In this document: positions 30,951-56,605 of the stretch, in pieces | Numbering within the stretch: the first letter of the stretch is position 1 | Layout: every line of letters starts with the position of its first letter | Assembly: GCA_965215185.1 (NCBI GenBank) | Contig: OZ244034.1 | Coordinates: 1,056,001 to 1,120,000 of the forward strand | Direction: 5' to 3' | Source of the DNA: Acidimicrobiia bacterium | Lineage (GTDB): Bacteria > Actinomycetota > Acidimicrobiia > Spongiisociales > ZC4RG35 | DNA length: 64,000 nucleotides | Translations under genes and position numbers: made by a program | The notes under the pieces: generated by a model | Seen by the model: only the letters and a program-made list of their open reading frames with translations | Database searches by the model: none | What the model was told of the DNA's origin: nothing

Positions 30951-31549
30951 GGACGGGGAATGCTGCGAGGACCACGGCTGGCCCACCAAGCGGCCACCAC
31001 CGCACCCAGCAAATTGGCGATCAAATCCTGCATGTTGTTGGCATAGTCGCCCACTCTGGCTTCCGAGACAGCCAAGGTGGCCAGATACTCACCAATCTCA
31101 ATCAGGGCCCCCACCGCATTGGCGCCCAGGAAAGCCACCAACGCCGCCTTCTTGCCGCTGCTGGCTTTGAGCATCCAAGCAGTCGCCTCCCAAACGGCCA
31201 GCCCTGCAGTGCCCAGTCCCAAGAAATGCACTACGTGGTCATATCCGATTCCCCGCCAGGATTGCTCGTAGAGCAACAGGTCGTCGATTACCACGTTGCC
31301 TCCCACCAGGTGACCGAAGCCGGAGACCGACAGCAACACCAGCACGTGGGTGGAGAGACGGACCCGACCATCCACATACATCACTATGGCCCCAACAGAG
31401 AGCATCCACACCAGATAGGGAAAGGCCAGCTTGGAACCTGTGCTCAGACCGTAGACCGTCCATGCCGCCACATAGATGCCCGATACCACAACAATCCACG
31501 GATGCCGACCCACACTGGTGCCGATCCGCGTTCTGCTTGGATTCATCAA
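30947..31549 (-). CDS. Membrane protein (DUF2238/YjdF-like)
   Basis: H..GG, YDHVVHF, EIGEY and DL.ANLLG motifs. Confidence 0.65.
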   Translation of the reverse strand: MMNPSRTRIGTSVGRHPWIVVVSGIYVAAWTVYGLSTGSKLAFPYLVWMLSVGAIVMYVDGRVRLSTHVLVLLSVSGFGHLVGGNVVIDDLLLYEQSWRGIGYDHVVHFLGLGTAGLAVWEATAWMLKASSGKKAALVAFLGANAVGALIEIGEYLATLAVSEARVGDYANNMQDLIANLLGAVVAAWWASRGPRSIPRP

Positions 31550-31550
31550 G

Positions 31551-31623
<73 letters not shown>

Positions 31624-31669
31624 GGTGGTGGCGGGAAACTCGGCGCGAAACTGGATGGGTTTAGGGTTT

Positions 31670-31675
31670 ATGGTA
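31670..31675 (-). promoter_or_regulatory. Outward-facing -10 box (TACCAT) in the element left end, upstream of tRNA-Arg
   Basis: TTATGGTAGTTGG is conserved in all four left-end copies (about 31668, 37113, 37427, 52852). Confidence 0.5.
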
Positions 31676-31789
31676 GTTGGGGTGGGGAGTGGGGGGTTGG
31701 TTGTTGTGCGGGTGAGGTTTGAAGTGGTGGGGGTGCTGGTTTTGGGTGTGTGGGCCGTGGTGGTCTAGGGCGGGGTGTTTTTTGGGGTG

Positions 31790-33457
31790 TTAGGCGGCTT
31801 TTTCGAGGGGTCCGGCTCGGGCGTTGGGGAAGTGGTTGCCGTGCCAGCGGGTCATGTCTTTGCCGGTGCGTGCGTGGTGGGCGACTAGGGCAGTGTTGGT
31901 CTGGTACAGGCTGTAGGCGATCCAGTTGAGTTTCAGGCTGTTTTTGTCTTGGGTGCGGAGCCGGTCGTAGTCCAGTTGTCTTTTGTAGGTCGCGAAGTGC
32001 GATTCGATGTCTTGTCGGATTCCATACAAGGGTTCGAAGAGGGGATCTGTTTCGGGGATGGGTCGCAGGGCGCGGGTTCGGCGGGTGTGTCGTTTGGCTT
32101 GGCGTTCTTGGGGGGTGCTGTTGTTTCGGATCCAGGTGATGGCTCCGATCATGTGTGGTGGCGCGACGGGGTGGTCGGGGATTTCCCATTGGGTGTAGAC
32201 GATGTGTTTGCGGGTTCGTTTCCCGGGTTTTTTGATTTGGGTGCGGGTTCGTCGGAGGGGCTGGTAGTAGGGGTGTCCGGTTCCGTCGAAGACGAGGATG
32301 GTGGGGGTGCCGTTGAGCGCGACGATGTTTTCTTCGAACTCGCCGTGTGCGGTTTTGAAGGTGCCGGGTCCCAGGTTGACTGCTGCGGTTTTGCCTTGGC
32401 TGGTGCGGGGTGTTTTGCTTATTGGCAGGATGCCTTGGTCCATGAGACGGTCACAGTCGGCGGAGCGCATGGCCATGTCGTAGGTGACGGCGCGTATTCC
32501 TTGGGTGAGGTGGGGAAAGTCTTTGCACATTTGGATGATCTTTTTGGTGAACAGGTTGGAGTCGGACTGTCCGGGTTGGTCGAGGATTTCCGCGAATAGA
32601 GGGATGCGTTCCTGCCGGTGGGGTCCGCGTACCACGGCGGCTACAACACAGTAGCAGTAGCCTTTTTCTTCGCCGGGCATGGGACGAACGTCGGGGTCGC
32701 AGCGATGCTTGGGTTTGTGGCCGGGCTTGCCGGGTGGTGGGTTCTTGAAGGCGGCGAGTGTAAAGGTGCCGTCACCGGCGACTATCTGGGTGGGATCGGG
32801 ACGGCTGATGGAACCGGTGGTGGGGTCTAGCAGGTCTATGAATCGGGCGGCTTCCAGGGAGGCGCCGGTGGCTGCTTTTTGCAAACGGTTGATGACCCAC
32901 GGATTCATGTAGGTTGTTCGAAAATAGTACTCGTTGTCACGGGTGGGCGGCTCTTCGGACAGTCTCCGGTTGGGATGGTCGGGCCACGCTTGTTCGGCGA
33001 CTTTTCTGAGCATGTTCCATTTTTTCTGTTCGGTGGGGAACTTCCAGTTGCGGTTGATGGTGTTCAGGTTCCTGTTCGTTGACCGTAACGAGCCGTAGAT
33101 GAAAACCGCCACTTGGAACAGGAGCCATTCGGCAGCGGTGTGCTTGCGGGGCCTGCCGCTTTTCCGGCGGTCTCCGAACACGGCCCGGATAGCGTTTTCT
33201 ATCAGTTCGCTTAGTTCCCATAGAAGCGAGTTGGACACTAGGGATGACAGGTTCTCGTCGTCTCCCCACCCGAGACCCTCCCCTTTGACGTTCCGTTCGC
33301 TGTTGCTTCCCGGAGTGTCGGACCTTTTCAATACCAGAGGTGTGTCTTCCCGTTCCTGGTAGGTGGGGTCTTCCCAAACCAAGTCGACCTGGTCTGCTCG
33401 TATCGGGTCCAGGTTGTCGTTGAACACCCGGGGACGGGCACCCTTTTTCTTACCCAC
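31790..33457 (-). CDS. Large DDE transposase (IS4-superfamily-like, about 555 aa)
   Basis: IVAGDGTF (D), AVTYDMAM (D), YGIRQDIESHFATYK = Y-2-R-3-E-6-K; GTG start at 33457 after GGAGG overlaps the upstream stop. Confidence 0.8.
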   Translation of the reverse strand: MGKKKGARPRVFNDNLDPIRADQVDLVWEDPTYQEREDTPLVLKRSDTPGSNSERNVKGEGLGWGDDENLSSLVSNSLLWELSELIENAIRAVFGDRRKSGRPRKHTAAEWLLFQVAVFIYGSLRSTNRNLNTINRNWKFPTEQKKWNMLRKVAEQAWPDHPNRRLSEEPPTRDNEYYFRTTYMNPWVINRLQKAATGASLEAARFIDLLDPTTGSISRPDPTQIVAGDGTFTLAAFKNPPPGKPGHKPKHRCDPDVRPMPGEEKGYCYCVVAAVVRGPHRQERIPLFAEILDQPGQSDSNLFTKKIIQMCKDFPHLTQGIRAVTYDMAMRSADCDRLMDQGILPISKTPRTSQGKTAAVNLGPGTFKTAHGEFEENIVALNGTPTILVFDGTGHPYYQPLRRTRTQIKKPGKRTRKHIVYTQWEIPDHPVAPPHMIGAITWIRNNSTPQERQAKRHTRRTRALRPIPETDPLFEPLYGIRQDIESHFATYKRQLDYDRLRTQDKNSLKLNWIAYSLYQTNTALVAHHARTGKDMTRWHGNHFPNARAGPLEKAA

Positions 33458-34371
33458 TCTGCCCCTCCATGAACACTTCAAGTCGTGCTTGCCCAACCTG
33501 TTTCCAGTCGTATCCCAATGCTTTGATCACGCTGGTCAGCGAGTCGGAACCGAGGAACCGGGCAGCGGCCTCCAACCCAAGACAGTCAAGAATCTGTTTG
33601 GCGGTATGGAGGCGAACTGACCGGGCCGAAACCTCCGGCCGTTCCCCTCAGCCCGGCGTCGCTGATCACTTCGCCCAGCCGGACAGTCACCGCGTGTCCT
33701 CTCCGATCCGTCTCGATCTGCTCGCTCACTGCTAACAGCCTCTTCTCGTCAATCAGCGGACGGATCTGCAGGAACTGGCGGATCGTTTGCTGTCCCCACT
33801 CGCACAAGGGGTTCCGCCGCCCGCCGATCCAAACTCGCCTGTTCGGAAGGTCAAGATCGCTCTTGCGGACCTTGGCTATCTCTGAGGATGTGCCCCCGGC
33901 AAACGCCAACGCAACGATCGTCGCCCGCCGGGAGAACAACTGTCCCCGGTCCGCGAAACCCCTCACCCGTTTGGCTTCTTCCTCGGTCAACGGTCGGGTG
34001 GTCAACGAATCGTGGCAACGAGGGATGCGCTCCCCGGCTAGGCGACGTCCATCGGCCACCAGCCCCAATGTTTCGGCGGCTTCGAACACCGCCATCGCCG
34101 CCCACTGACGGTTACGGGCCGTGGACACCGAAGGCCGAGCATGCTCGCCGCCCGGTGTTTGCCGAGCAGCCCAACACCATGACAACACCACCTCCGACGT
34201 GACGTCCCCCCATCGTCTTATCCCCGCTGTGCGCAGATAACGAAAGAGTCTTTCCGCTTCGCCTGTTAGCTTCGCTGCGGTGCGGACATTGGCACGGTAC
34301 CTTTCTGCTACCAGATCAATGACTCTGGTAATAGCGGGTTCAATGAGCAGAAGTACAGGGGTCACGGTCAT
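33450..34371 (-). CDS. Tyrosine-recombinase-fold protein with a degenerate active site; one frameshift near 33645
   Basis: RPLTEEE, ALAFAGGTSSEIAKVRKSDLDL; after a shift in the G-run it continues VSARSVRLHTA...LEAAARFLGSDSL...LGYDW to TAA at 33450-33452. Confidence 0.7.
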
Positions 34372-34378
34372 TTCTGCC

Positions 34379-34672
34379 TTACAAGATCCCACAACGATTA
34401 CAAAAACCGTTTTTGGGAGGCCCGGTTGGCGATACCCACAAAAGGTGTTCTTTCACTCCCAATACCATATACGCGCGCGCGACGCTAAAAAGGGAACTGC
34501 GCGGCGGATCCTTTTCGGGGCTATGGGATCCTGCCAGCCCGGTGGGGCGCCATGGAACGACCTGCCGGCCCTTCTGCCGAGATGTTGGACACGTCGCCCC
34601 AGCACAACACCAATGTCGGCATTGCGGACAGATTCTCTTGCCGCGACGGAACCTGCTGCCGGGATCGGACAT
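34379..34672 (-). CDS. Possible small Cys-rich (Zn-binding) protein
   Basis: CPQCRHWCC....C and CNRC; stop lies 7 nt before the recombinase-fold ATG. Confidence 0.3.
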   Translation of the reverse strand: MSDPGSRFRRGKRICPQCRHWCCAGATCPTSRQKGRQVVPWRPTGLAGSHSPEKDPPRSSLFSVARAYMVLGVKEHLLWVSPTGPPKNGFCNRCGIL

Positions 34673-35339
34673 GGCAGCACTGCGCATCTACCAAAGTCCA
34701 CACCTGTAACAATGATTTCACTATCTGCCACTCCCGCCACATAGCCGGCTCGTTGTAACACCAACATGAACCGCAGCACTATCGCTCCAAATACGGTGTT
34801 TCATAACTGATCATCCCCCCCATCATAAAACCCCCCTGTGACACTCTTCGAAGAGAGAACACGATCTACAAGAGGATCACACAAAACTTATCGATCACCG
34901 CACCTGTCGACCAAAAGACACCAAACACCCCGCCAATCACTAAGCGACAGCACCCTGACAACACCCGAACCAAGACACCCCGACCATCGCCCCACGCCTT
35001 CCCCAACCAACATCTGACAGGCCCCCGGACAACCCCTTCCTGAAGGCACTGCGCCAAACCTCTGCTACTAATGTCGACCGACCCACCCCCCGGATTAGCC
35101 GCAGGGCTCTGTTTTGGGGGTCGCGTGTGGTTTCGTTGGGGAAATCATCCGGTAGTTGGGGTGTGAGGTCGTTGGGTTCGCTACCGGTGTGTCCGTTCCG
35201 AGCGGCTTTTCGGCGTTGCTGTCCGAGCGTACAGATAGAAACGAGGGTGCCTCACGGCGGCCTGTCGCTTGGATGGTGGCTGGAGCTTTCACGTCCAGTT
35301 CGCCCAACTGGGCGTAGACACCGGCAAAGGCGGAGAGTG

Positions 35340-35587
35340 GCGTTCGAACGAGCCGCTCACCCGCCTGGAAATGGCCGAGTGGCTGACCAGCATGTTCGAC
35401 CACATCAGCGCTGTCGCCGCCCCGCAGAGCCTGTTCTCTGACATCGACCCGGCTCCGGTCGGTCGTGGAGGGCCTCTACCAAACCGGGGTGACCCGCGGA
35501 TGCTCGGCCACGCCTTTGTTGTACTGCCCGGACGCTCCGGTCCCCCGGGCGCAAATGGCGTCGTTCATCATCAGGGCCATCCAATAA
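35340..35587 (+). pseudogene. S-layer homology (SLH) domain fragment
   Basis: PLTRLEMA...LFSDI, frameshift, then EGLYQTGVTRGC...YCPDAPVPRAQMASFIIRA. Confidence 0.7.
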
Positions 35588-35656
35588 CCACGCCGCCGCA
35601 ACGTTCAAGAAATCGTTCTCGGCCGATCCGGAAAAGACCGGTACGATTCCCCCTAT

Positions 35657-36778
35657 ATGAAACCTCTCGATGCTTTGTCGCTGGTTCCCACCGTGGAGGA
35701 CTCCAGGCGGGTAGCGGACGCCCTGCCCGGCAGCGTGGTCCTTTTCGGCAGCGTTGCCCGCGGTGACGCCGATCACGACTCCGACATCGATCTGCTGGTG
35801 ATTGTCGATCACGTAGACCGCGACAACCCTTGGGAACATCACCGCTTGTTATGCGACTTGGCAGAAAAGGCCGAGTCGGTAGACGCCCGCGCCGAGTTAG
35901 TGGTGGTGGACTGGCCCGAGTGGATGTCCCGCCGGCAGGTACCGGGACGGGTCGAGCATGCTGCCGACACCCAGGGAACGTGGCTTCGCAGGCACAGTCC
36001 CGGCTCGGAAGTAAAATGGGAAAAACTGATGAACCCGAGAGATGTCGCCACCGCTTCGGTCATAGCAGCGTTGCGTAACGCCACGGTGCGTTTAGAAGGC
36101 GCCGGTTCCTCTATGGTTCCCCACAGAAAGGAAATCAGGCTGGCCAGCGCAGGGGAAGAAAATCTGTATTGGTCGGCATGGCAAAGCAGGCTTGCGCGCA
36201 TCAACGGCGACCTGCACGATGGGTTGGAAGAACTGTTCCGAGCCTTGCGGTTGCTGACGGGGGTTTCTTACAACAAACGGGCCAAACACACCCTAGTGGG
36301 GCCCTTCGACGAGTTTCCCGGTCCGGTACAGGATGCCCTAAGCCAACACTTGACCGTAACGGACATGCAGTGGATTCAAATATGGCACTCGGCTTCTTTT
36401 TACGAAAAAGGCGCCCGGCTTAGCGTCTCCCCTGAGACCACCCGCCAGTTGGGGTATGTCGCCTCGGACGTGGCAGCGTACATTCATAACGTCACGGGTG
36501 TGGCGGCGGGTTTGGCTGTCTATTGCTCATCCACTATAAAAATCAGCCAGGCTGTTATAGCGCTGATACAGGAGGAAGCCTCTAACGGCGACGGCCCAGT
36601 AAAAGCAACCGCTGATCTGGAAACCGTGTTGAAGGACCTGTGGATCACCGTAGATTGGTTGAGGGAAGAACTGGACACCTCGCTGTGGCTGTACCCAGAC
36701 GGAACGCCCCCCAACGGTTGGACACAGCCCACACCCGCCGAGCTTCAAGGCAGACTCCCTCCGTGGAGCGGCCACTAG
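35657..36778 (+). CDS. Minimal nucleotidyltransferase (MNT) fused to a helical, possibly HEPN-like domain
   Basis: VLFGSVARGDADHDSDIDLLVIV; helical C-half containing KRAKHTL. Confidence 0.75.
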   Translation: MKPLDALSLVPTVEDSRRVADALPGSVVLFGSVARGDADHDSDIDLLVIVDHVDRDNPWEHHRLLCDLAEKAESVDARAELVVVDWPEWMSRRQVPGRVEHAADTQGTWLRRHSPGSEVKWEKLMNPRDVATASVIAALRNATVRLEGAGSSMVPHRKEIRLASAGEENLYWSAWQSRLARINGDLHDGLEELFRALRLLTGVSYNKRAKHTLVGPFDEFPGPVQDALSQHLTVTDMQWIQIWHSASFYEKGARLSVSPETTRQLGYVASDVAAYIHNVTGVAAGLAVYCSSTIKISQAVIALIQEEASNGDGPVKATADLETVLKDLWITVDWLREELDTSLWLYPDGTPPNGWTQPTPAELQGRLPPWSGH

Positions 36779-37065
36779 GAATAGCCATTGAGGGCGCAAC
36801 GCCTTGCGGGCGTTCTCGCTCCGCCGGGCGGAAAAACAGAGGCGGTCCCGATGTTTAGCGAGCCCGGTCGGCGGTTTCGTTGAGGGCATGCCCGAAGCGG
36901 TTCGCATATTCCGCTCTGCGTAGTTTGCGGGCAACCTGTCGGCAGGGGAGAGGATTAAGCCGCGCCAACCTTCACTCGGAGATTGTGAAGCTCTGGCAAC
37001 ACAGTGGGACGGGGCGGTTCGAAATGGCGCTCTAATGCCTCGCCGAGATTGTCAAGTGCCTCCCA

Positions 37066-37140
37066 GTCGGGGTTGGCGCGTTATGTGGCGCGAAACTGTT
37101 GCGGTTTCTATGTTTATGGTAGTTGGGAGGGGCAGTGAGG
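37066..37140. repeat. Extra internal left-end copy of the element
   Basis: GTCGGGGTTGGCGCG...TGGCGCGAAACTGTTG...TTATGGTAGTTGGG, closest to the copy at 52816. Confidence 0.7.
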
Positions 37141-37268
37141 GGTGGGGTGTTGCGCGTGGCAGGAACACATGGCGGAGATCGGTGTCACCGAGGCCATCCA
37201 AAGAGCACTACCCGCAGCTCGGTTCGGTAAACACACCGAGGATTAGGTGCAGTTGCCGGGCCGAGAAC

Positions 37269-37374
37269 GGTTTCGAAATCCGGTACAACCAGTTTCAGAA
37301 TTGGACGAAAGTGGTTTCACCGCTCTGTTCGCCCGATGCTGTGACCTGGGGTTGTGGGGTTTCGCGCCAGCGCC
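37269..37374. repeat. Element right end with about 22-bp periodic GTTTC repeats (copies at 39514-39619, 52706-52811, partial 49977-50009)
   Basis: GGTTTCRGAATTGGCYRRAAGT-type units, then GATGCTGTGACCTGGGG...GTTTCGCGCCAGCGCC. Confidence 0.85.
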
Positions 37375-37551
37375 ACAAGGGCGGTGGTGGCGCGAAACTC
37401 GGCGCGAAACTGGATGGGTTTAGGGTTTATGGTAGTTGGAGTGGGGAGTGGGGGGTGGGTTGTTGTGCGGGTGAGGTTTGGTGGGGGTGGGGGTGAGGGT
37501 TTTGGGCGTGTGGGCCGCGGTGGTCTAGGGCGGGGGTGTCTTTTGGGGGGT

Positions 37552-38414
37552 TTAGGCGGCTTTTTCGAGGGGTCCGGCTCGAGCGTTGGGGAAGTGGTTG
37601 CCGTGCCAGCGGGTCATGTCTTTGCCGGTGCGTGCGTGGTGGGCGACTAGGGCAGTGTTGGTCTGGTACAGGCAGTAGGCGATCCAGTTGAGTTTGAGGC
37701 TGGTTTTGTCTTGGGTGCGGAGCCGGTCGTAGTCCAGTTGTCTTTTGTAGGTCGCGAAGTGCGATTCGATGTCTTGTCGGATTCCATACAAGGATTCGAA
37801 GAGGGGATCTGTTTCTGGTACGGGTCGCAGGGCGCGGGTTCAGCGGGTGTGGCGTTTGGCTTGGCGTTCTTGGGGGGTGCTGTTGTTTCGGATCCAGGTG
37901 ATGGCTCCGATCATGTGCTGTGGCACCACGGGATGGTCGGGTATCTCCCATTGGGTGTACACGATGTGCTTGCGGGTCCGTTTCCCGGGTTTTTTGATTT
38001 GGGTGCGGGTTCGTCGGAGGGGCTGGTAGTAGGGGTGTCCGGTTCCGTCGAAGACGAGGATGGTGGGGGTGCCGTTGAGCGCGACGATGTTTTCTTCGAA
38101 CTCGCCGTGTGCGGTTTTGAAGGTGCCGGGTCCCAGGTTGACTGCTGCGGTTTTGCCTTGGCTGGTGCGGGGTGTTTTGCTTATTGGCAGGATGCCTTGG
38201 TCCATGAGGCGGTCACAGTCGGCGGAGCGCATGGCCATGTCGTAGGTGACGGCGCGTATTCCTTGGGTGAGGTGGGGAAAGTCTTGGCGCATTTGGATGA
38301 TCTTTTGGGTGAACAGGTTGGCGTCGGACTGTCCGGGTTCGTCGAGGATTTCCGCGAAAAGAGGGATGCGTTCCTGCCGGTGGGGTCCGCGTACCACGGC
38401 GGCTACCACACAGT
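37552..38414 (-). pseudogene. Truncated second copy of the DDE transposase
   Basis: Near-identical to the E1 C-terminal half; nonsense TGA at about 37840; 5' half replaced at 38415. Confidence 0.9.
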
Positions 38415-38610
38415 TGTTGGCGATCATCGAAATTCCCCACTTCCTGGGGCTAATACCCGTTGTTGGGTAGGGCTCTCTCCAAGCTGCTGATTGAAGCAAA
38501 GTCGGCAGCTGTGGAGAGGAGCCCTGGCCCTTATGTTGGCATTGGAGGAATACGTGGAAGTTCATGCTTTGAGAAGGCGGGGATGGTCGATATCGGCTAT
38601 AGTGGCATAG
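38415..38610 (+). mobile_element. IS21-family left end and istA N-terminal fragment
   Basis: TGTTGGCGATCATCGAAATTCCCCAC end; MLALEEYVEVHALRRRGWSISAI from 38533. Confidence 0.7.
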
Positions 38611-38961
38611 CCGGAGGGTCGGTTTCGTAAGAAACCCCGACCCCCGGGTGTTCGTAGTAGGCGCGCAGATGGTTGGCGTCAGTGAAAAGCATCGGGCGCG
38701 GTCATGGCCGGTGAGGCTCAGCTGAAGATCCAGGGGCGGGCTTGTTTGTTGGAGAGGATGTCGTCGTTTGGTGATTTTGGACTCGATCTTGATGGCGAAC
38801 GGCGCGTCGGCTGCGGGGTTATAGAGTTCCTTGAAGTGGTCGTGGATCACATCAAGGTGCTGTCTCAGTTGAACCATCTGGGCGTCGCTCATGAGTAGCT
38901 CGCCGCGTCGCACTAGGTTGGAGAGCGAGAGTACCTCGTGCCGGTATATACTGATCGCTTT

Positions 38962-39156
38962 ATGAGACCTGATCCAAACATCGCCTTGATCCTCTCAATC
39001 TTTTTGGGTGGACTGGGAATTGATCGCATGTACGTTGGCCAAATCGGGCTGGGTGTGCTGAAGCTCCTCACCGCTGGGGGGCTGGGCATCTGGTGGCTGG
39101 TCGATTTGTTCCTGATCCGCGGGATAGCCCGGAAAGCCCAGCAAGAAGGCACTTAG
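38962..39156 (+). CDS. TM2-domain small membrane protein (copy 1)
   Basis: ALILSIFLGGLGIDRMYVGQIGLGVLKLLTAGGLGIWWLVD. Confidence 0.88.
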   Translation: MRPDPNIALILSIFLGGLGIDRMYVGQIGLGVLKLLTAGGLGIWWLVDLFLIRGIARKAQQEGT

Positions 39157-39840
39157 CACCCTGAGCGAGGGTTAAGGTGCAGACCGTCCTTCCCTCGGGG
39201 GACATGTCAAGTGCCCGACCTCACCTAAAGGCCGTGGCTGTCCGGTAACCGCTATTCCCAAAGGCGGATAGCGAGGGAACCGAGAAGGTTTGTGGGGGAC
39301 TTTTCTGATCAGTTGTGGGGTAGTTGCTAACTGTCTAGGTTCCGTCATCGGTTCCTTCGCCGGTGGAGCCTGGTATTCGGAGTCTGATTACGGTGCATTA
39401 GTCGCTGCCCAGGCAGCCGGTTCCATCAGTTTCGATAACGAACTCAGGGCCGAACTGTCCGGCGCAACGATCCCCGACCGCAAGTGGATGAATCTCAAAA
39501 CGGGACCGGTAGCGGTTTCGGAATTGGCCAGAAGTGGTTTCAGAATTTGCTGAAAGTGGTTTCACCGGCCTGTTCGCGCGATGCTGTGACCTGGGGCGTT
39601 GTGGTTTCGCGCCAGCGCCGACCCAACAGGGCCTCTCACACGATCACAGAATACGTGTCCGCCAAACCGGGGGAACTCCATTACCACTCCACCCTTTCAA
39701 ATAGGCGGTTCAACCGCAAGCTCCTTCTTTGCAGCCCAACCCTACGGTAGTTGATCCTTTCGGGGTGGTTCCGGTGCGTTGGTGGTGTGATGTGAGTGCG
39801 GTGGTCAATTACTGAGGTTCCCCTAAGTCTCTACCAAACC

Positions 39841-39971
39841 CACTCATACTGATAGGGGTCCCTTGGCCGGGGCGGGTCTGACCCATACCAAACCTGGCTT
39901 TTGCCTTTGCCCGATCTGTCGGCCTGTTTCCGGCTGAGGGATTGTTCACCGACCCGTGGGCGGATGTGACC
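39841..39971 (+). ncRNA. IS110 left end A, truncated bridge-RNA-like leader (target-binding loop only)
   Basis: Inverted homologue of 42800-42933; cut at 39972 by an IS3-type IR. Confidence 0.65.
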
Positions 39972-40025
39972 TGAACCGTGCCGATGCTCCTAGGATGCTC
40001 CTATTTTTGTCAAATCGAGAGCATC

Positions 40026-41252
40026 CTAGATATTCGCAGGGTTTTGTTGGGTGAGCCATTGTTGGTATTGGGTGGCGAGGTGGTGGTTGTGGTATAGGCC
40101 TCGTTCGAGTTGGGAGATGCGGTTGGGGTGGGTTTGGAGGGCGGTGGCGGCGTGGGTGAGGGTGGTCTGTGTGTGGTGGCGTTGGGTGCGTAGGAGGGCG
40201 CCGTTGGGTGTTGGTGGTGGGTTGGTGAGCAGGTGGTAGATCTCTCGGGCGATGTGGCGTTTTAGGCAGCGGATGATCTCCCGGCGGGTTTTGCTCTCGG
40301 TTTGGCGGCGGTGGGTGTATTCGATGGTGGGTTGATGGCAGCGCATCCGGGTGGTGGCGATACGCCATAAGGCGTTGTTGGCTTGGCGGTCGCCGCCTCT
40401 GTTGAGCCGGTGGCGTATGGTCTGCCCGGAGGAGGCCTGGACGGGACTGGCGCCGCATAATGCTGCGAAAGACGCTTCGGTGGTCAGGCGTTTGGGGTTG
40501 TCTCCTGCTGTGACCAGCAAAGCGGCGGCCGTGTCAGGACCGACACCCGGGGCGGAGAGCAGCGCCGGGTTGGCTCGGGAACAAAGACGAGTGATCTCTT
40601 TGTCGAGTTCTTTGATCTCGGTGGTGAGCGCCTGGCAGCGGCGCGCCAGATAGCGCAGTGTTTTCTTGGCGACCGTGGTGGTGGTATCGGCTGTGCCGGG
40701 ACGAAACCCGGCACAGGCTCGGATCCGGGCTTTGGTCGACAGTCCCCGGAGTTGGTGTTTGACCTGCTCGGGAGCGGTGACCACTAGGGCGTGGAGTTGG
40801 TTGATGGCCTGGGTGCGGGCTTTGATTGCGGAACGGCGGACTACCCGCAACATCCTGATTCCCTCGACCAGTCCGTCGGCGGTTTTGGGTCGGGCGGTGG
40901 CTTCACCGTTGAGAGCGGCCCGCCCGGCGGCTTGGGCGTCGGTGGTGTCGGTTTTTCCCAGTCGGCGGCGCAGCTGACGGTTGGGACGGTTGACTTCTAC
41001 CACCTCGATACCGATCCCGGTGAGATAGCGGGTCAGGCCGGCGCCGTAGCTGCCGGTGCCTTCCACCCCAACCCGCACCACACGACCCTGGGATCTCAAC
41101 CAGCCGCCCAGTTCCTCAAAGCCGGTTGCATCGGCCGGGAACGGAGCGGTTCCCAGGACTCGACCGGCGGTGTCCACTGCCGCCGCGACATGACAATCGC
41201 GATGGGTGTCCACCCCGCCAAACACCTCGACCAGGCTCTCTTTTTGTGACAT
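40026..41252 (-). CDS. IS110 family recombinase with a C-terminal HTH extension
   Basis: GGVDTH, GVEGTGSYG, KTDTTDA (DEDD); SSG...RHRLNRGGDRQAN. Confidence 0.95.
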   Translation of the reverse strand: MSQKESLVEVFGGVDTHRDCHVAAAVDTAGRVLGTAPFPADATGFEELGGWLRSQGRVVRVGVEGTGSYGAGLTRYLTGIGIEVVEVNRPNRQLRRRLGKTDTTDAQAAGRAALNGEATARPKTADGLVEGIRMLRVVRRSAIKARTQAINQLHALVVTAPEQVKHQLRGLSTKARIRACAGFRPGTADTTTTVAKKTLRYLARRCQALTTEIKELDKEITRLCSRANPALLSAPGVGPDTAAALLVTAGDNPKRLTTEASFAALCGASPVQASSGQTIRHRLNRGGDRQANNALWRIATTRMRCHQPTIEYTHRRQTESKTRREIIRCLKRHIAREIYHLLTNPPPTPNGALLRTQRHHTQTTLTHAATALQTHPNRISQLERGLYHNHHLATQYQQWLTQQNPANI

Positions 41253-41484
41253 GAATGTCTTCTTCTTCCTTGGATAGACTCGCGGGTATCACCGGACCGG
41301 AAGCGGTGGACAGAACACTCATGATGGTGTGGAGAAGCAAGGCTCCTATAAGGTCACATCCGCTCCCGGGTCGGGGAGTGTCCCCAGGCCGAAAGCAGGC
41401 CGACAGATCATAGATAAGGCACAAACGGCCAGTTTGTCAAGGGGTCAGACCCGCCCCGACCAAGGGACCCCACCATTATGAGTG
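41253..41484 (-). ncRNA. IS110 C leader, putative bridge RNA
   Basis: Target-loop segments TTGACAAAC and TCTATG; donor-loop segments ATAGGAGC and ATGAGTG. Confidence 0.7.
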
Positions 41485-41488
41485 TTTG

Positions 41489-42703
41489 TCAAATCGAGTT
41501 TTGTGTGGTGATCCATTGTTGGTATCGGGTGGCGAGTTGATGGTTGTGGTATTGGCCTCGCTCGAGTTGTGATAGGCGTATTGGGTAGGTGTGGAGGGCC
41601 TCGGCGGCGTGAGCGAGGGTTGTTCGCGTGTTTTTGCGTAGACAGCGCAGATGGGCGCCGTCGGGTGTGTCCGGTGGGTTGGTGAGCAGCCTGTGGATCT
41701 CTCGGGCGATGTGACGTTTGAGGCAGCGGATGATCTCGCGACGGTTTTTGCCTTCTGTTTGTCTTTTTTGGACATAGGCGATGGTTGGCTGGTGGCGGCG
41801 CATGCGGGTGGTGGCGATCCGCCACAGGGCCTGGTTGGCCTGGCGGTTCCCGCCGCGGTTGAGACGGTGCCGGACGGTACGTCCCGAGGACGCTTGGACA
41901 GGGCTTACGCCGCACAGAGCAGCGAAAGAGGATTCTGAGTGCATGCGTTCGGGGTTGTCGCCTGCTGCGACCAATAACACCGCGGCGGTGTCGGCGCCGA
42001 TCCCGGGGGCGGCCAACAGTGCCGGGTTGACCTGGGCGCAGAGATGGTTGATCTGGGTGGTGAGTTCTCCGATCTCTGCGGTGAGGGTCTGGTATCGGCG
42101 GGCCAGGGAACGCAACGCCGCTTTGGCGTATCTGATGGTGGTGTCGGCTGTGCCTGGGCGGAAACCGGCGCAGGTCTTTACGCGGGCTTTGGGAGAAAGT
42201 CCTCCAAGTTGGTGTCTGACCTGGTCGGGAGCGGTAACAATCAGGGCGTGCAGCTGGTTGATGGCCTGGGTTCGGGCTTTGGTCGCCGAACGGCGGGCCA
42301 CCGTGAGCATCCGTATTGCTTCTACTGGACCGTTACCGCTTTTGGGCACTGCGGTGGCCTGTCCGCTGAGAACCGCCCGAGCCGCGGCTTGGGCATCGGC
42401 GGTGTCAGTCTTGCCCAACCGGCGGCGCAACTGACGGTTTGCACGGTTCACTTCCACCGCCTCCATGCCGATACTGGTGAGGTGGCGGGCCAGACCGGCG
42501 CCGTAGCTGCCGGTGCCCTCCACCCCGACTCGGACCACCCTGCCGTGGGACTGTAGCCAATCGCCCAGTTGCTCATAACCGGCCGTGTCGACCGCGAAAG
42601 GGGCTGTTCCCAGGACTCGACCGGTGCTGTCCACCACCGCTGCCACATGAACATCCCGATGGGTGTCCACCCCACCAAACACATCTACCTGACCTACTGA
42701 CAT
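41489..42703 (-). CDS. IS110 family recombinase with a C-terminal HTH extension
   Basis: Same motifs as 40026..41252; a diverged paralogue. Confidence 0.95.
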   Translation of the reverse strand: MSVGQVDVFGGVDTHRDVHVAAVVDSTGRVLGTAPFAVDTAGYEQLGDWLQSHGRVVRVGVEGTGSYGAGLARHLTSIGMEAVEVNRANRQLRRRLGKTDTADAQAAARAVLSGQATAVPKSGNGPVEAIRMLTVARRSATKARTQAINQLHALIVTAPDQVRHQLGGLSPKARVKTCAGFRPGTADTTIRYAKAALRSLARRYQTLTAEIGELTTQINHLCAQVNPALLAAPGIGADTAAVLLVAAGDNPERMHSESSFAALCGVSPVQASSGRTVRHRLNRGGNRQANQALWRIATTRMRRHQPTIAYVQKRQTEGKNRREIIRCLKRHIAREIHRLLTNPPDTPDGAHLRCLRKNTRTTLAHAAEALHTYPIRLSQLERGQYHNHQLATRYQQWITTQNSI

Positions 42704-42933
42704 GATTCCTCCTACTCGGAATATAATTCGGGCTGTTCACCAGACCCGCTGGCGGATGGACAACACACTCATGGTGGTGGAGAAGCAAGGCTCCTATCAG
42801 GTCACATCCGCCCACGGGTCGGTGAACAATCCCCCAGCCGGAAAACAGGTCGACAGATCGGCACCAAGGCACAAAACCAGGTTTCATAAGGGTCAGACCC
42901 GCCCCGGCCAAGGGACCCCTATCAGTATGAGTG
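42704..42933 (-). ncRNA. IS110 B leader, putative bridge RNA
   Basis: Target-loop segments TATGAAACC and GTGCCG; donor-loop segments ATAGGAGC and ATGAGTG. Confidence 0.72.
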
Positions 42934-43150
42934 GGTTTCATAGAGGGTTGGTTGTTTGTGTAATTGGGGGTTTGATCGGGTTGGTTTGATGGTAGTTGGT
43001 TTCGTGTTCGGCGGGGGTGGTGTAGGTGGTATCTGGGGTGATTCCGCGAGGGTGGCGAAGGTGGTGTGGTCAAGGTCTCGCCAGGGTCCCCGGTTGCGGA
43101 TCAGTTCAGTTTTGTATAGACCGATGGTGGTCTCTGCCAGGGCATTGTCA
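42934..43150 (-). mobile_element. IS3-family (IS6110-like) 3' remnant whose IR is split by IS110 B
   Basis: DNALAETTIGLYKTELIRNRGPW; other half of the IR at 39972-39982. Confidence 0.75.
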
Positions 43151-49699: not shown

Positions 49700-49976
49700 G
49701 CTCATTTCCGTGTACATACGGTTCCTCTTCGGGTTTGGGCTGAGCTAGGGACGGTATGGGATTTCGGGTAGGCCTCAACCGAGTGGAGCGTCTGATGACT
49801 CCACCATGTATACCAGGCGTCACCTGCCAAAAGACCTCCCATCGTCGCAAACGTCGAGTGACTGGCGAGGTACCTGCTGATTTGGTTGGGCGGCGGTTTG
49901 AACCGCTCCGAGTTTTCCGGAGGATTTGGTGGTACCCCACTTTGGTGGAGTTGGGATATTTGAATTAGTGGTGTGC
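49700..49976 (+). mobile_element. IS3 orfB fragment followed by two stacked IS3-type left IRs (49899, 49927)
   Basis: GFRVGLNRVERLM...PADLVGRRF; TGAACCGCTCCG and TGGTGGTACCCCACTTTGGTGGAG. Confidence 0.65.
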
Positions 49977-50248
49977 TGACCTGGGGTGTTGTGGTTTCGC
50001 TCCAGCGCCACCTCAACCAGGATGTTTACACCATCTATCTGGTGCGGGTCGGGGCGGACGGTGACTGGGACACGGTGAAAGAACTCCACGATGTGTACCT
50101 TGAAGCCAGGCGGGACAACCATCAGGCAATGCAAGACGGACTCGACGGGCTGCTATCGGATTTCGTTGGGCATGGGGACTACTCGGGGGAGTGGCAATAA
50201 ACCCACCGGCCACGAGTGGTTAGTGGCACGCTCGGTCTGTCAGGTCGG

Positions 50249-52015: not shown

Positions 52016-52906
52016 TCGGCCCGGTCCACGATCAAACCGGGTGTCCACCGGCAATACCCGAGTCCACGGTTGGGTGTCCACGGTTCGGTTCTTGTGATCA
52101 TTTTCGCTCCGGTATGCGCCCGCTGGTCACGGTTTGAACGTGACCCATACACCTAAACCTTGTTTCCCGGTGTTGATCCCCGGATGTTGCGGGCCTGTAG
52201 AGGCGGTGACTAGATGGTTGGAGACCCGAGGCGTATTTGATGGGAGCCTACCCGCATCCCCATAAAACCTTCGCTTGTTACGCCCCTGTCCGCTATTCGA
52301 CCGGGATCCAAGACATTGGTCTACGCTTAGGTACCCACTGTGAAAAACGACATGGCCACCACCAGCACTGATGATCTTTGGCGGCTGGCATGGTCCGCCG
52401 CTCCCGCTGGTGCCTTAACGACTTCGCCGTTCAGTGCTTCCGACTTGATCTGGTCAAGGAGCGACTTACCCAACGTGGTCTCCAGTGGGTAGGCAATCAC
52501 CTAGCGAAACCGCGTTAACGGACACAACCATCGATGCATTGGCAGGACGAGCGGCCCCAGTGGAATGCGACCCAGCCGAACCCGCTATGTAGGACATCCT
52601 TCAATCTTAAGAGGACGACCGCTGCAAGGGAGGTAACTACAAGAGCGGCTTGGAGGTGCGTGACCGAGAATTCCACGGGGCGCAACTTTGAGGACATGCG
52701 GCAGCCGTTTCAGGAATAGCCAAAACTGGTTTCGGAATTGGCTGAAAGTGATTTCAGCGTCCTGTTTGCGGGATGCTGTGACCTGGGGTGTTTTGGTTTC
52801 GCGCCAGCGCCCAAGGGCGGGGTTGGCGCGAAACTGTTGGGGTTTCTGTGCTTATGGTAGTTGGGGCGGAGAGTGGGGTGAACCGCGCCGGGTTTGGTAG
52901 AGGGTT

Positions 52907-54177
52907 TGGTGGTACCCGACTTTGGTGGAGTCGGGTTATTTGAATTGGTGGTGTGACTGACCCGGAAGGAGTCTTCATGCCTTATCGATATCCACCCGAG
53001 TTCCGTCGCAGGGTGCTGGATCTGCTGGCAGTTGGCAGGTCGGTAGCGTCGTTGTCAGCGGATCTTGGGGTGTCTGATCAGACGATCTACAACTGGCGGC
53101 GCCAAGACCGAATCGACCGCGGTCTACAACCGGGTGCCACTTCGGAGGAACAGGCCGAACTGTGGGCCGCTCGCTGTCGGATCGTCGAGCTGGAAACCGA
53201 ACTGGCCGTGACCAAGCGGGCTATTGAACTGCTGGGAGACCAGGTGGTGCACCTCAAAGACGCTACCAGGCGATCCGGACCATGAGAACCGAAGGGCTTC
53301 CCAGGTGGCGTGTCGAGTGCTCGAGGTGTCACAGTCCGGGTTCTACGCCAGGGTGGTCCCGGCCGCCGTCAGCCCGCTTGCATCCGCCACGCCTGGTTGA
53401 CCGACGTCATCTGTCACATCCATGAACAGTCACGCGGCACCTATGGGGCGCGGCGGGTGCACGCCGAACTGCGGTTGGGTCATGGAATAACCGTCGGACA
53501 CAACGCAGTAGCGATGCTGATGCGCAGAGCCGGTCTAGCTGGTCTTAGTAGGTGACCGAAGTCCCAGACGGCGGACCCGCCCGGTGGACACGCCCGGTGG
53601 ACCTGGTCGACCGTAACTTCGCCCGTTTCGAACCGGACCAACTGTGGGTGACCGATATCACAGAGCATCCCACCCGGCAAGCGCAAGGTGTACTGCGCGG
53701 TGGTGCTGGACGTGTACGGGCCGCCGGGTCGTCGGCTGGTCGATCGACAACACGGCCACCTCCGGACTGGTCACCTCCGCGTTAGGTATGGCAATCGGGA
53801 ACCGCCAACCCGACCCCGGCACGGTCATACATTCGGACCAGGGCACCCAATTCACCTCCTGGGCGTTCACCCAACGGGCCCTCGAATCCGGTCTGGTTCC
53901 GTCCATGGGAACCGTCGGGGACTGTTTCGATAACGCCACCATGGAATCGTTTTGGGCTCGTATGCAGGTCGAGCTGTTGGACCGCAGGAGGTGGAGGACC
54001 CGTATCGAACTCGCCAACGCTATCTTCGAGTACCTAGAGATCTTCCACAACCGCCACCGGCGCCACACCGCACTGGAAATGCGCACCCCCATCGAATACG
54101 AAAGAAACCACAACAACAACCTAACCATCGCACCACTGATCCAAGTGAGCTGACTCCACAAAACCGGGGGACCATCA
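52907..54177 (+). mobile_element. IS3 family element (1271 bp, frameshifted orfA/orfB) enclosed by a second IS3-type IR pair (52879-52906, 54178-54201)
   Basis: IRs TGGTGGTACCCGACTTTGGTGGAGTC and GACTCCACAAAACCGGGGGACCATCA; orfA MPYRYPPEFRR; WVTDIT, HSDQG and DNATMES. Confidence 0.9.
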
Positions 54178-54342
54178 CTCTATGAATCCCGGTACGGTTC
54201 AGGGGGTTGGTTGTGGCGCGGGTGGGGTTTATGTGAGGTTTTGAGGGGCTGGATCTAGGGGTTTTGGAGTGTGGGCCGCGGTGATCCAGGGCTTTTGGGT
54301 GTTTGGCCCGCGGTGATCTGGGGCGGGGTGGTTTTGGGGTGT

Positions 54343-55957: not shown

Positions 55958-56605
55958 TCAGGTTCCGAAACGCTCCTCCAGAACTCTGATCACCTCCGAG
56001 GGGGCGATCTTCCGTTCGGCAGCCAAAACCAGCATGTGATAGAGAAGGTCAGCCATCTCCTCGGCTACTCGCCGGTTGGGTTCCTGTCCCTGAGCATGCT
56101 CTTTGGCAGCCATCAGCACTTCCGTGGCCTCTTCCACCACCTTGCGGGCACTCATATTCACGCCGCCTTCCAACAACCGGGTTGTGTAGGAGCCCGAGGG
56201 CCGCTGGGCGGCGCGGGAAGCGATCACTTCCCATAACCGCTCCAACCACTGGAACCCCTCCCCACGGGGACCGTCGGCGAAACAGGTAACGGTGTTACGG
56301 TGACAGGCGGGACCAGCCGGCCGGGCGGTGATCAATAGCGTGTCGGCATCACAGTCGGATTCGATCTTTACCACCTCAAGAAGGGAGCCGCTCGTGGCGC
56401 CTTTTAACCACAGTTCACCACGCGACCTCGACCAGAAGTGCACATAGCCGCTCTCCAAGGTGAGTAGGTAGGACTCTCGGTTGAGATAGGCCACCATCAG
56501 AACCTGACCTGTCCTGGCGTCTTGCACAACGCCCGGGATGAGACCTTGCGAGTCCCAGCGAAGCTCGTCGGGCGGGGGAGTGGCGGTTAGAGAAGACTTG
56601 GTCAT
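55958..56605 (-). CDS. hisIE: Bifunctional phosphoribosyl-AMP cyclohydrolase / phosphoribosyl-ATP pyrophosphatase
   Basis: [24 protein letters not shown]...CF; [14 protein letters not shown]. Confidence 0.95.

Follow-up and report, generated by a model that had tools for sequence, protein, structure and literature searches.

The window, as the whole 64,000-nucleotide stretch of Acidimicrobiia DNA analysed here is called, contains a tRNA-Arg(CCT) gene whose 5' end (31623) adjoins the terminus of a transposon (31624) with no gap. It is the single Arg-CCT gene among the 49 tRNAs of this genome. As seen in Table 1, both ends of the adjoining transposon are present, and it is followed by further copies and fragments of the same kind. 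Between the ends of the first copy lie the transposase gene, a recombinase-like gene, small ORFs and, as cargo, a nucleotidyltransferase-domain gene (35657-36778; Pfam NTP_transf_2 and Polbeta), which is possibly one half of a toxin-antitoxin-like pair.

Table 1. Coordinates of the tRNA gene, the transposon copies and their parts in the window
Feature	Position	Strand	Remarks
tRNA-Arg(CCT)	31550-31623	-	ARAGORN; Rfam RF00005, 71.1 bits, model 1-71 of 71; intact
ACAAGGGC, left copy (tRNA nt 1-8)	31616-31623		exact repeat of 37375-37382
Element copy 1, 5751 bp	31624-37374		flanked by ACAAGGGC on both sides
tRNA-proximal transposon end	31624-31789	-	sequence; 28 copies compared in 18 genomes or contigs
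Terminal inverted repeat of tRNA-proximal end	31624-31639
GGCG(G/C)GAAACT repeats in tRNA-proximal end	31630-31640 and 31642-31652
TACCAT, candidate -10 hexamer, tRNA-facing	31670-31675	-	plus strand ATGGTA
Transposase, 555 aa, Tn5-like DDE fold	31790-33457	-	no named family
Tyrosine-recombinase-like partner gene	33586-34392	-	weak Phage_integrase or SAM-like matches
Degenerate extra end copy	37069-37156	-	left flank CCCAGTC; begins at GGGG without ACAAGGGC
Far ("right") end of element copy 1	37262-37374	+	repeat family D7; pattern search; nhmmer; terminal GGTTTCGCGCCAGCGCC at 37358-37374
ACAAGGGC, right copy	37375-37382		directly after terminal GGTTTCGCGCCAGCGCC
Second, defective element copy, tandem	37383-39619	-	far (right) end 39507-39619
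Right-end fragment, CAAGGGC, fourth end copy	52699-52811, 52812-52818, 52819-52878
hisI	55958-56605	-	Pfam PRA-CH and PRA-PH; first conserved host gene past the island

Organization of the element and the island

The tRNA-proximal end, named the left end in an earlier note on this DNA, is the right end by the convention used for insertion sequences, because the transposase gene reads toward it. Its terminus is GGTGGTGGCGGGAAAC, and the terminus of the far end, read as the reverse complement, is GGCGCTGGCGCGAAAC. Since 13 of the 16 positions agree, the two are regarded as inverted-repeat ends. When metagenomes were scanned with the far terminus, GTTTCGCGCCAGCGCC, none of the 80 loci examined out of 120 stretches had the context of a far end; three loci passed loose filters, and all were chance matches.

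In the second copy, positions 37372-38414 are 96% identical to 31613-32652 of the first, the same TACCAT box is present at 37429-37434, and the transposase is reduced to a remnant with one internal TGA stop. The 113-nt repeat that ends in GGTTTCGCGCCAGCGCC is found at the three far ends of Table 1 and as a fragment at 49977-50009, and the fourth end copy is interrupted at 52879 by an IS3-type insertion. In two relatives, hisI lies only 143-470 nt from the tRNA, and the flanks of two relatives (G016 and G001) align with the window from 55967 onward. These distances, together with the stacked copies, indicate that mobile DNA has piled up into an island that extends from 31624 to about 55957. No 8-mer directly follows the far ends at 39619 and 50009, so the original native Arg promoter of the locus was not recovered.

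Other mobile sequences can be observed in the island. Another insertion sequence, located in G006 at a distance of 1.2 kb from the tRNA, has a terminal part that matches positions 39620-39690, right after the second far end, at 90%. Two tandem IS110-family transposase genes on the minus strand (40026-41252 and 41489-42703), about 76% identical over 1.4 kb, form a pair (39829-42945) bracketed by inverted repeats of 73 nt and 48 nt (39829-39974 versus 42797-42945). The IS3-type element inside the fourth end (52879-54178) carries a helix-turn-helix ORF followed by an rve integrase-core ORF (53644-54153), with apparent frame breaks. At 49899-49984, next to a right-end fragment, its end is present again as an 87-nt copy.

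The transposase and its partner protein

Against Pfam DDE_Tnp_1 the transposase of the window scored 21.4 bits, below the gathering cut-off of 23. Of 20 family members, 5 match this model at E values up to 0.01 (best 0.00023) and 2 match NCBIfam NF033551, the IS1182 family (best 0.00016); the window protein gave no match to the latter. A search of PDB sequences with the transposase profile returned nothing meaningful (best E 0.27). The AlphaFold model, with a pLDDT of 82.5 when built from 20 sequences and 43.9 when built from 7, has Tn5 transposase as its top five PDB matches in Foldseek (E 1.7e-6), at a TM of only 0.31-0.37. Residues D229, D327 and E485 are invariant in 20 transposase sequences of 21-82% identity and presumably represent the catalytic triad. 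Where the IS4/Tn5-type signature, Y-(2)-R-(3)-E-(6)-K, would be expected, the window protein reads YGIRQDIESHFATYK. R481 and E485 are invariant among the 20 sequences, and the Y and K of the signature are outside the invariant and near-invariant columns.

The recombinase-like partner gene is directly upstream of the transposase gene in 25 of 29 distant loci. The catalytic motif of tyrosine recombinases consists of Arg-His-Arg and a tyrosine nucleophile. Mapped by eye onto the partner, the candidate catalytic Tyr column contains Y in 5 of 22 sequences, and about half of the sequences have the candidate first Arg; the only invariant residues are R87, A153, E163, R184 and G273. Matches to Pfam Phage_integrase never reached the cut-off (best 18.0 bits versus 27.1), and the N-terminal SAM-like domain exceeded its own in 1 of 20 sequences (24.0 versus 22.3). 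The partner is probably a DNA-binding relic, a degenerate recombinase. The window copy has 268 residues as compared with 305-306 in two related contigs (L044, L045); about the last 50 residues are missing in the alignment, apparently by a frameshift. The truncated partner and the broken second copy suggest that the elements of the window may no longer move unaided. Homologues of both proteins are called "hypothetical protein" wherever a source names them, and the rest are nameless.

Duplication of the first eight bases of the tRNA

According to the earlier note, no native remnant of the upstream side of the tRNA was found at the far end of the island. This was mistaken, as ACAAGGGC, identical to tRNA nt 1-8, occurs at 37375-37382 directly after GGTTTCGCGCCAGCGCC. 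As an 8-mer it is not rare (4 matches versus 2.7 expected), and its significance is its placement flush between inverted-repeat ends, not its rarity. Junctions composed of a far end, ACAAGGGC and a tRNA-proximal end were found 9 times in 7 genomes: twice each in the window and G011, and once each in G002, G005, G013, G015 and contig L045. The equivalent position between the right-end fragment and the fourth end copy is occupied by CAAGGGC.

End copies with other left flanks (window 37069 and G015 4550) start precisely at GGGG, without ACAAGGGC, and in L046 two tRNA-proximal ends face each other with the 8-mer between them. It follows from these two arrangements that the 8-mer is target DNA and not part of the element. 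The proposal that the element both disrupts the tRNA and supplies its missing nucleotides is therefore not upheld: the tRNA is intact over the full Rfam model, and the eight bases are a target-site duplication that is lacking from the GGGG-start ends. Elsewhere, G042 has a second Arg 8-mer 11.5 kb from the first, where it follows a perfect inverted repeat. The window, G042 and G368 thus all have 8-bp repeats. The 16-nt ends agree at 13-14 of 16 positions. No second 8-mer was found beside a far end within 12 kb in L199-L204, L206 and L207, where the far ends are more distant or decayed.

A pair of genomes from one genus, G368 and G374, offers the occupied and the empty form of a single site, and this is the one element for which a clean target duplication can be compared with an empty-site control. 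In G368 the element is located on tRNA-Ala(TGC). Its inverted-repeat far end lies about 9.4 kb away and is followed by ACGTCCCC (strand as read here), which repeats the first 8 bases of that tRNA, and then by a sequence ending in TACGAT plus 10 nt. In G374 the tRNA-Ala is uninterrupted, and TACGAT plus 10 nt is found directly upstream of it. Taken together, the two genomes reveal that the 8 bp of tRNA nt 1-8 were duplicated and that the native promoter was displaced by about 9.4 kb. The gene flanked by the element is the only tRNA-Ala(TGC) found in G368, the other Ala genes being GGC and CGC, in an assembly that is 85% complete.

The same tRNA-Ala(TGC) also bears a trace of another kind. In G374, a 46-nt exact copy of its 3' part is located 4.7 kb downstream of the gene (C4 1054725-1054770). 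A copy of this sort is what an integrase-type island usually leaves at the 3' end of a tRNA, and the transposon family targets this very tRNA at its 5' end.

A tRNA-facing hexamer in the transposon end

A TAnnnT hexamer alone is the main -10 signal of actinobacteria, and the term occurs in papers on transcription start sites of Streptomyces and Mycobacterium. In the present genome, TAnnnT starts at -36 to -11 in 30 of the 37 tRNA genes that are first in their unit, and it is the usual mark upstream of tRNA genes here. At tRNA-Arg(CCT), the only TAnnnT in the same survey starts at -52. This is the TACCAT of the transposon's terminal part, the sole TAnnnT within 110 nt upstream; its last T is 47 nt from the first base of the tRNA, as the earlier note had placed it. 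The invariance that the note described around the box is also confirmed, as TTATGGTAGTTGG is identical in all four end copies of the window (near 31668, 37113, 37427 and 52852) while adjacent bases vary.

Conservation across homologous ends, proposed by the note as a check, extends well beyond the window. All 28 close end copies have a TAnnnT in the tRNA sense (minus strand), as compared with failures on the opposite (plus) strand in 4 of the 28, and the distance from box to terminus ranges from 31 to 82 nt among these copies, within one genus. At distant tRNA-adjacent loci, a sense TAnnnT at -85 to -45 was found in 21 of 26 and an antisense one in 0 of 26, against a mean of 4.9 and a maximum of 12 in shuffled controls of the distant set. 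In the remaining 5 loci the box is at about -105 or -15. The distant hexamers include TACAAT, TAGATT, TAGGAT, TATCCT, TACGAT and others, and T-A-n-n-n-T is constant. A -10 element should show just this pattern of fixed T, A and T with freely varying inner letters, whereas a fixed protein site should not.

Searches for additional signals gave negative results. Rfam models matched nothing in the transposon end other than the tRNA, and the fold of the leader RNA was not above chance (z -0.04). A scan for two-hexamer consensus promoters, with the -35 hexamer at 16-18 nt, gave 0 sites in 31400-32000, and an anchored alignment of end copies, in which a -35 was sought, had no conserved block past a C-rich run. 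Of the outward promoter claimed for the element, the -10 part is supported by comparison, with a conserved tRNA-facing box and a displaced native promoter in the G368/G374 pair, and no recognizable -35 accompanies it. No terminator is predicted between the transposase gene and the tRNA, so that read-through could contribute to transcription of the tRNA.

Distribution in the genus and the class

Sixteen genomes of the same genus were compared, of which 15 could be assessed (the contig of G010 ends before the tRNA). In 15 of 15 the tRNA-proximal end is flush on the first base of tRNA-Arg(CCT) and carries the box, and a substantial transposase is beside the tRNA in only 4 of these (G007, G008, G011 and G015). 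In G016, a 143-nt remnant is everything between the tRNA and hisI. As no site lacking the end exists among them, the native Arg promoter of the genus is not seen; outside the genus, two of three Arg-CCT loci without an element have TACAAT or TAGTCT 10-13 nt upstream, as judged by eye.

In the class, transposase profile matches were found in 48 of 401 sampled genomes, representing 33 of 177 genera. Of the 29 transposase loci returned, 25 adjoin the 5' end of a tRNA. An intact, co-oriented tRNA is located just downstream in 21 (18 Arg-CCT and one each of Arg-CCG, Lys-TTT and Ala-TGC), and in 4 only the 5' part of a tRNA is present, cut by the contig end or by other DNA. The other 4 loci (L169, L192, L194 and L195) have no adjoining tRNA. 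A second copy in G182 is on Thr-TGT. Acidimicrobiia is named in one homologue record. Two unpublished genomes, G027 and G038, are the basis of none of the claims made here.

It was also considered whether the end sequence is simply the native upstream region of the tRNA in this genus. This was rejected, as the sequence is found in unrelated lineages too, next to transposases of 33% identity, and at places distant from any tRNA.

Several further features were observed among the distant loci. In L178 and L182 (G191 and G340), the tRNA at the transposon end stops past the anticodon region, with unrelated DNA beyond; it seems that a second event hit the same tRNA gene from the opposite side. Many distant elements (L170-L197) share the motif (C)AGCGCGC, which closely follows the transposase stop codon at about 130-150 nt upstream of the tRNA and is absent from the clade of the window. 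In addition, a contig labelled as a Bifidobacterium breve MAG (L047) has an element end that agrees with the one in G330 (L171) at every one of the 150 nt compared. G330 belongs to the class of the window; the label may be a binning error.

Proposed mechanism and alternative explanations

The explanation that we consider probable is that a DDE transposon targets nt 1-8 of tRNA genes and duplicates them, and that its end supplies a -10 box driving the tRNA. A Tn5-like DDE transposon of an unnamed family would insert in the first eight base pairs of a tRNA gene, and a staggered cut followed by repair would duplicate tRNA nt 1-8, giving the two copies of ACAAGGGC. The duplication would keep the tRNA gene whole and at the same time part it from its own promoter. 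The inserted end would bring an outward sigma-A-type -10 hexamer, TACCAT, at a variable distance inside the terminal transposase-site repeats. From this hexamer the pre-tRNA would most likely start near 31663 (31662-31664), with a leader of about 40 nt to be removed by RNase P, and the host would then depend on the promoter of the element. The comparisons show the element ends, the 8-bp duplication, the targeting of tRNAs across the class, a displaced native promoter in a related case and a TAnnnT conserved on one strand, and they support donation of a promoter by the transposon end well. Activity of the box, dependence of the tRNA on it and the position of the transcript start are points that we infer. 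Since a tRNA-Arg(TCT) is present, tRNA-Arg(CCT) may be dispensable, and dependence weighs less here than for the tRNA-Ala of G368.

The same box could instead serve mainly the element, by transcribing across a circle or tandem junction into the recombinase-like and transposase genes of the next copy, with the tRNA as a by-product. Copy-out-paste-in insertion sequences have junction promoters, and in the present family both genes read from the far end toward the tRNA-side end, the 9 end-to-end junctions with the 8-mer in 7 genomes provide such a context, and the box is kept in 8 of 8 junction copies scored. This account leaves unexplained why the 11 of 15 relatives that have lost the transposase beside the tRNA still keep end and box there, and the Tn5-like enzymes are known for cut-and-paste, not for circles. 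As the main purpose of the box it is considered unlikely, although the two roles are compatible and may both hold. It is more improbable still that the box is a binding site of the transposase or the partner and that the tRNA is transcribed by read-through from the element genes or elsewhere. The box does lie in the subterminal region where transposase sites are expected, and the lack of a visible -35 and of a predicted terminator before the tRNA would agree with read-through. A protein site is hard to reconcile with the retention of only T, A and T, with drifting inner letters, across proteins 21-43% identical, or with a spacing to the terminus of 31-82 nt in one genus. Moreover, the box is strand-specific, it is absent from the other element end (alignment by eye), and remnants with no upstream element gene, such as that of G016, keep it.

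The version of the earlier note, recast here as site-specific recombination in which the recombinase-like protein integrates a circle by crossover in an 8-bp core between inverted binding sites, and ACAAGGGC, leader and promoter are all element-borne replacements, ranks as the least probable of the accounts. Inverted repeats around an 8-bp spacer are also the layout of a tyrosine-recombinase core site, a recombinase-like gene belongs to the conserved module, and tandem arrays in the same orientation are typical of integrases. Against this, the candidate catalytic Y is found in 5 of 22 partner sequences, the first catalytic Arg is not invariant (by eye), and the catalytic-domain scores in Pfam are never at the cut-off, whereas the D, D and E of the transposase are invariant. 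Ends with unrelated flanks start exactly at the inverted repeat, and the ends facing across the 8-mer in L046 fit insertion in either orientation.

Comparison with known systems

Insertion by a DDE transposase into tRNA nt 1-8, the reading preferred here, invites comparison with several known systems. The family resembles Tn5/IS50 and other IS4-type elements in its transposase fold, invariant D, D and E, terminal inverted repeats and short duplication, which is 8 bp here; that of Tn5 is 9 bp. It differs from them in falling below the family sequence cut-offs, in needing or keeping a recombinase-like partner gene, in its strict targeting of tRNA 5' ends, and in having cargo (elements of 5.7-11.5 kb) and a promoter-bearing end. 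An outward -10-type element near an end is likewise known from insertion sequences whose promoters activate adjacent genes, such as IS10 with pOUT and ISAba1. Activation by these is an accident of landing, whereas here the putative promoter comes together with a fixed target and takes the place of one just removed, and the host keeps it after the transposase has decayed.

Integrase-type islands and prophages share with this family the use of tRNA landing sites, tandem arrays with short direct repeats, and a target gene kept functional. Integrase elements, in an account attributed to Williams in 2002, reportedly rely on an active tyrosine integrase with crossover in the 3' half of the tRNA, carry a copy of the tRNA 3' part and leave the promoter untouched. 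The present element enters at tRNA nt 1-8, duplicates only 8 bp and must replace the promoter. Repeats equal to the 3' part of the tRNA, with the promoter side intact, characterize an integrase island; the repeat found here is nt 1-8, and the promoter in G368 is displaced. Tn7 and Tn7-like elements are similar in being DDE transposons that seek out a conserved host gene, insert at a set distance from it and spare it, possibly with a separate DNA-binding target selector. The conserved core here is two genes, with no sign of genes of the TnsA/B/C/TniQ type. Tn7 inserts downstream of its target gene, and the present element inserts inside the 5' end of the tRNA.

In one paper (PMC8869645), Dada elements are described as eukaryotic DDE transposons at fixed positions within tRNA genes, with 6-7-bp duplications; many families target tRNA nt 8-13 (TAGCTC), a site that adjoins the nt 1-8 duplicated here. 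Dada is described there as interrupting multicopy tRNA genes and relying on redundancy, in contrast to the family here, which occupies single-copy tRNA genes of bacteria, does not break them up and brings its own candidate promoter. On that description, Dada is the nearest analogue. Tn5-like transposases, outward promoters and tRNA targets are each of a kind already known; searches of the literature yielded neither their combination nor a description of such a bacterial element.

Significance of the proposed promoter-bearing transposon end

Integrase-type islands classically land in tRNA genes and enter them from the 3' side, and the accepted reason is that the promoter thereby stays attached. 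The opposite solution would apply here, with entry at the 5' end and a promoter brought by the element. A broader picture, which is offered tentatively and to which we give somewhat less than even weight, is that of a widespread bacterial family, as yet unannotated, in which an enzymatically dead recombinase-like selector reads the TAGCTCA conserved in tRNA genes, a Tn5-like transposase cuts at nt 1-8, and the end carries the replacement promoter. The single-copy tRNA-Arg(CCT) would then run on transposon DNA throughout the genus, even after decay of the element, and the family would represent a bacterial counterpart of the tRNA-targeting eukaryotic elements that, unlike these, mends the damage it causes.

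If transcript mapping confirms the proposed start, this locus would be a clear case in which the expression signal of a host gene is mobile DNA fixed across a genus. It would also define a new site-specific transposon family, present in 48 of the 401 class genomes sampled, whose proteins are now nameless or listed as "hypothetical protein". The possible use of a degenerate recombinase fold as the DNA-reading partner of a DDE transposase would be of mechanistic interest. Such a family would, in addition, provide a compact two-protein system that places 5-11 kb of cargo at a precise and harmless chromosomal position.
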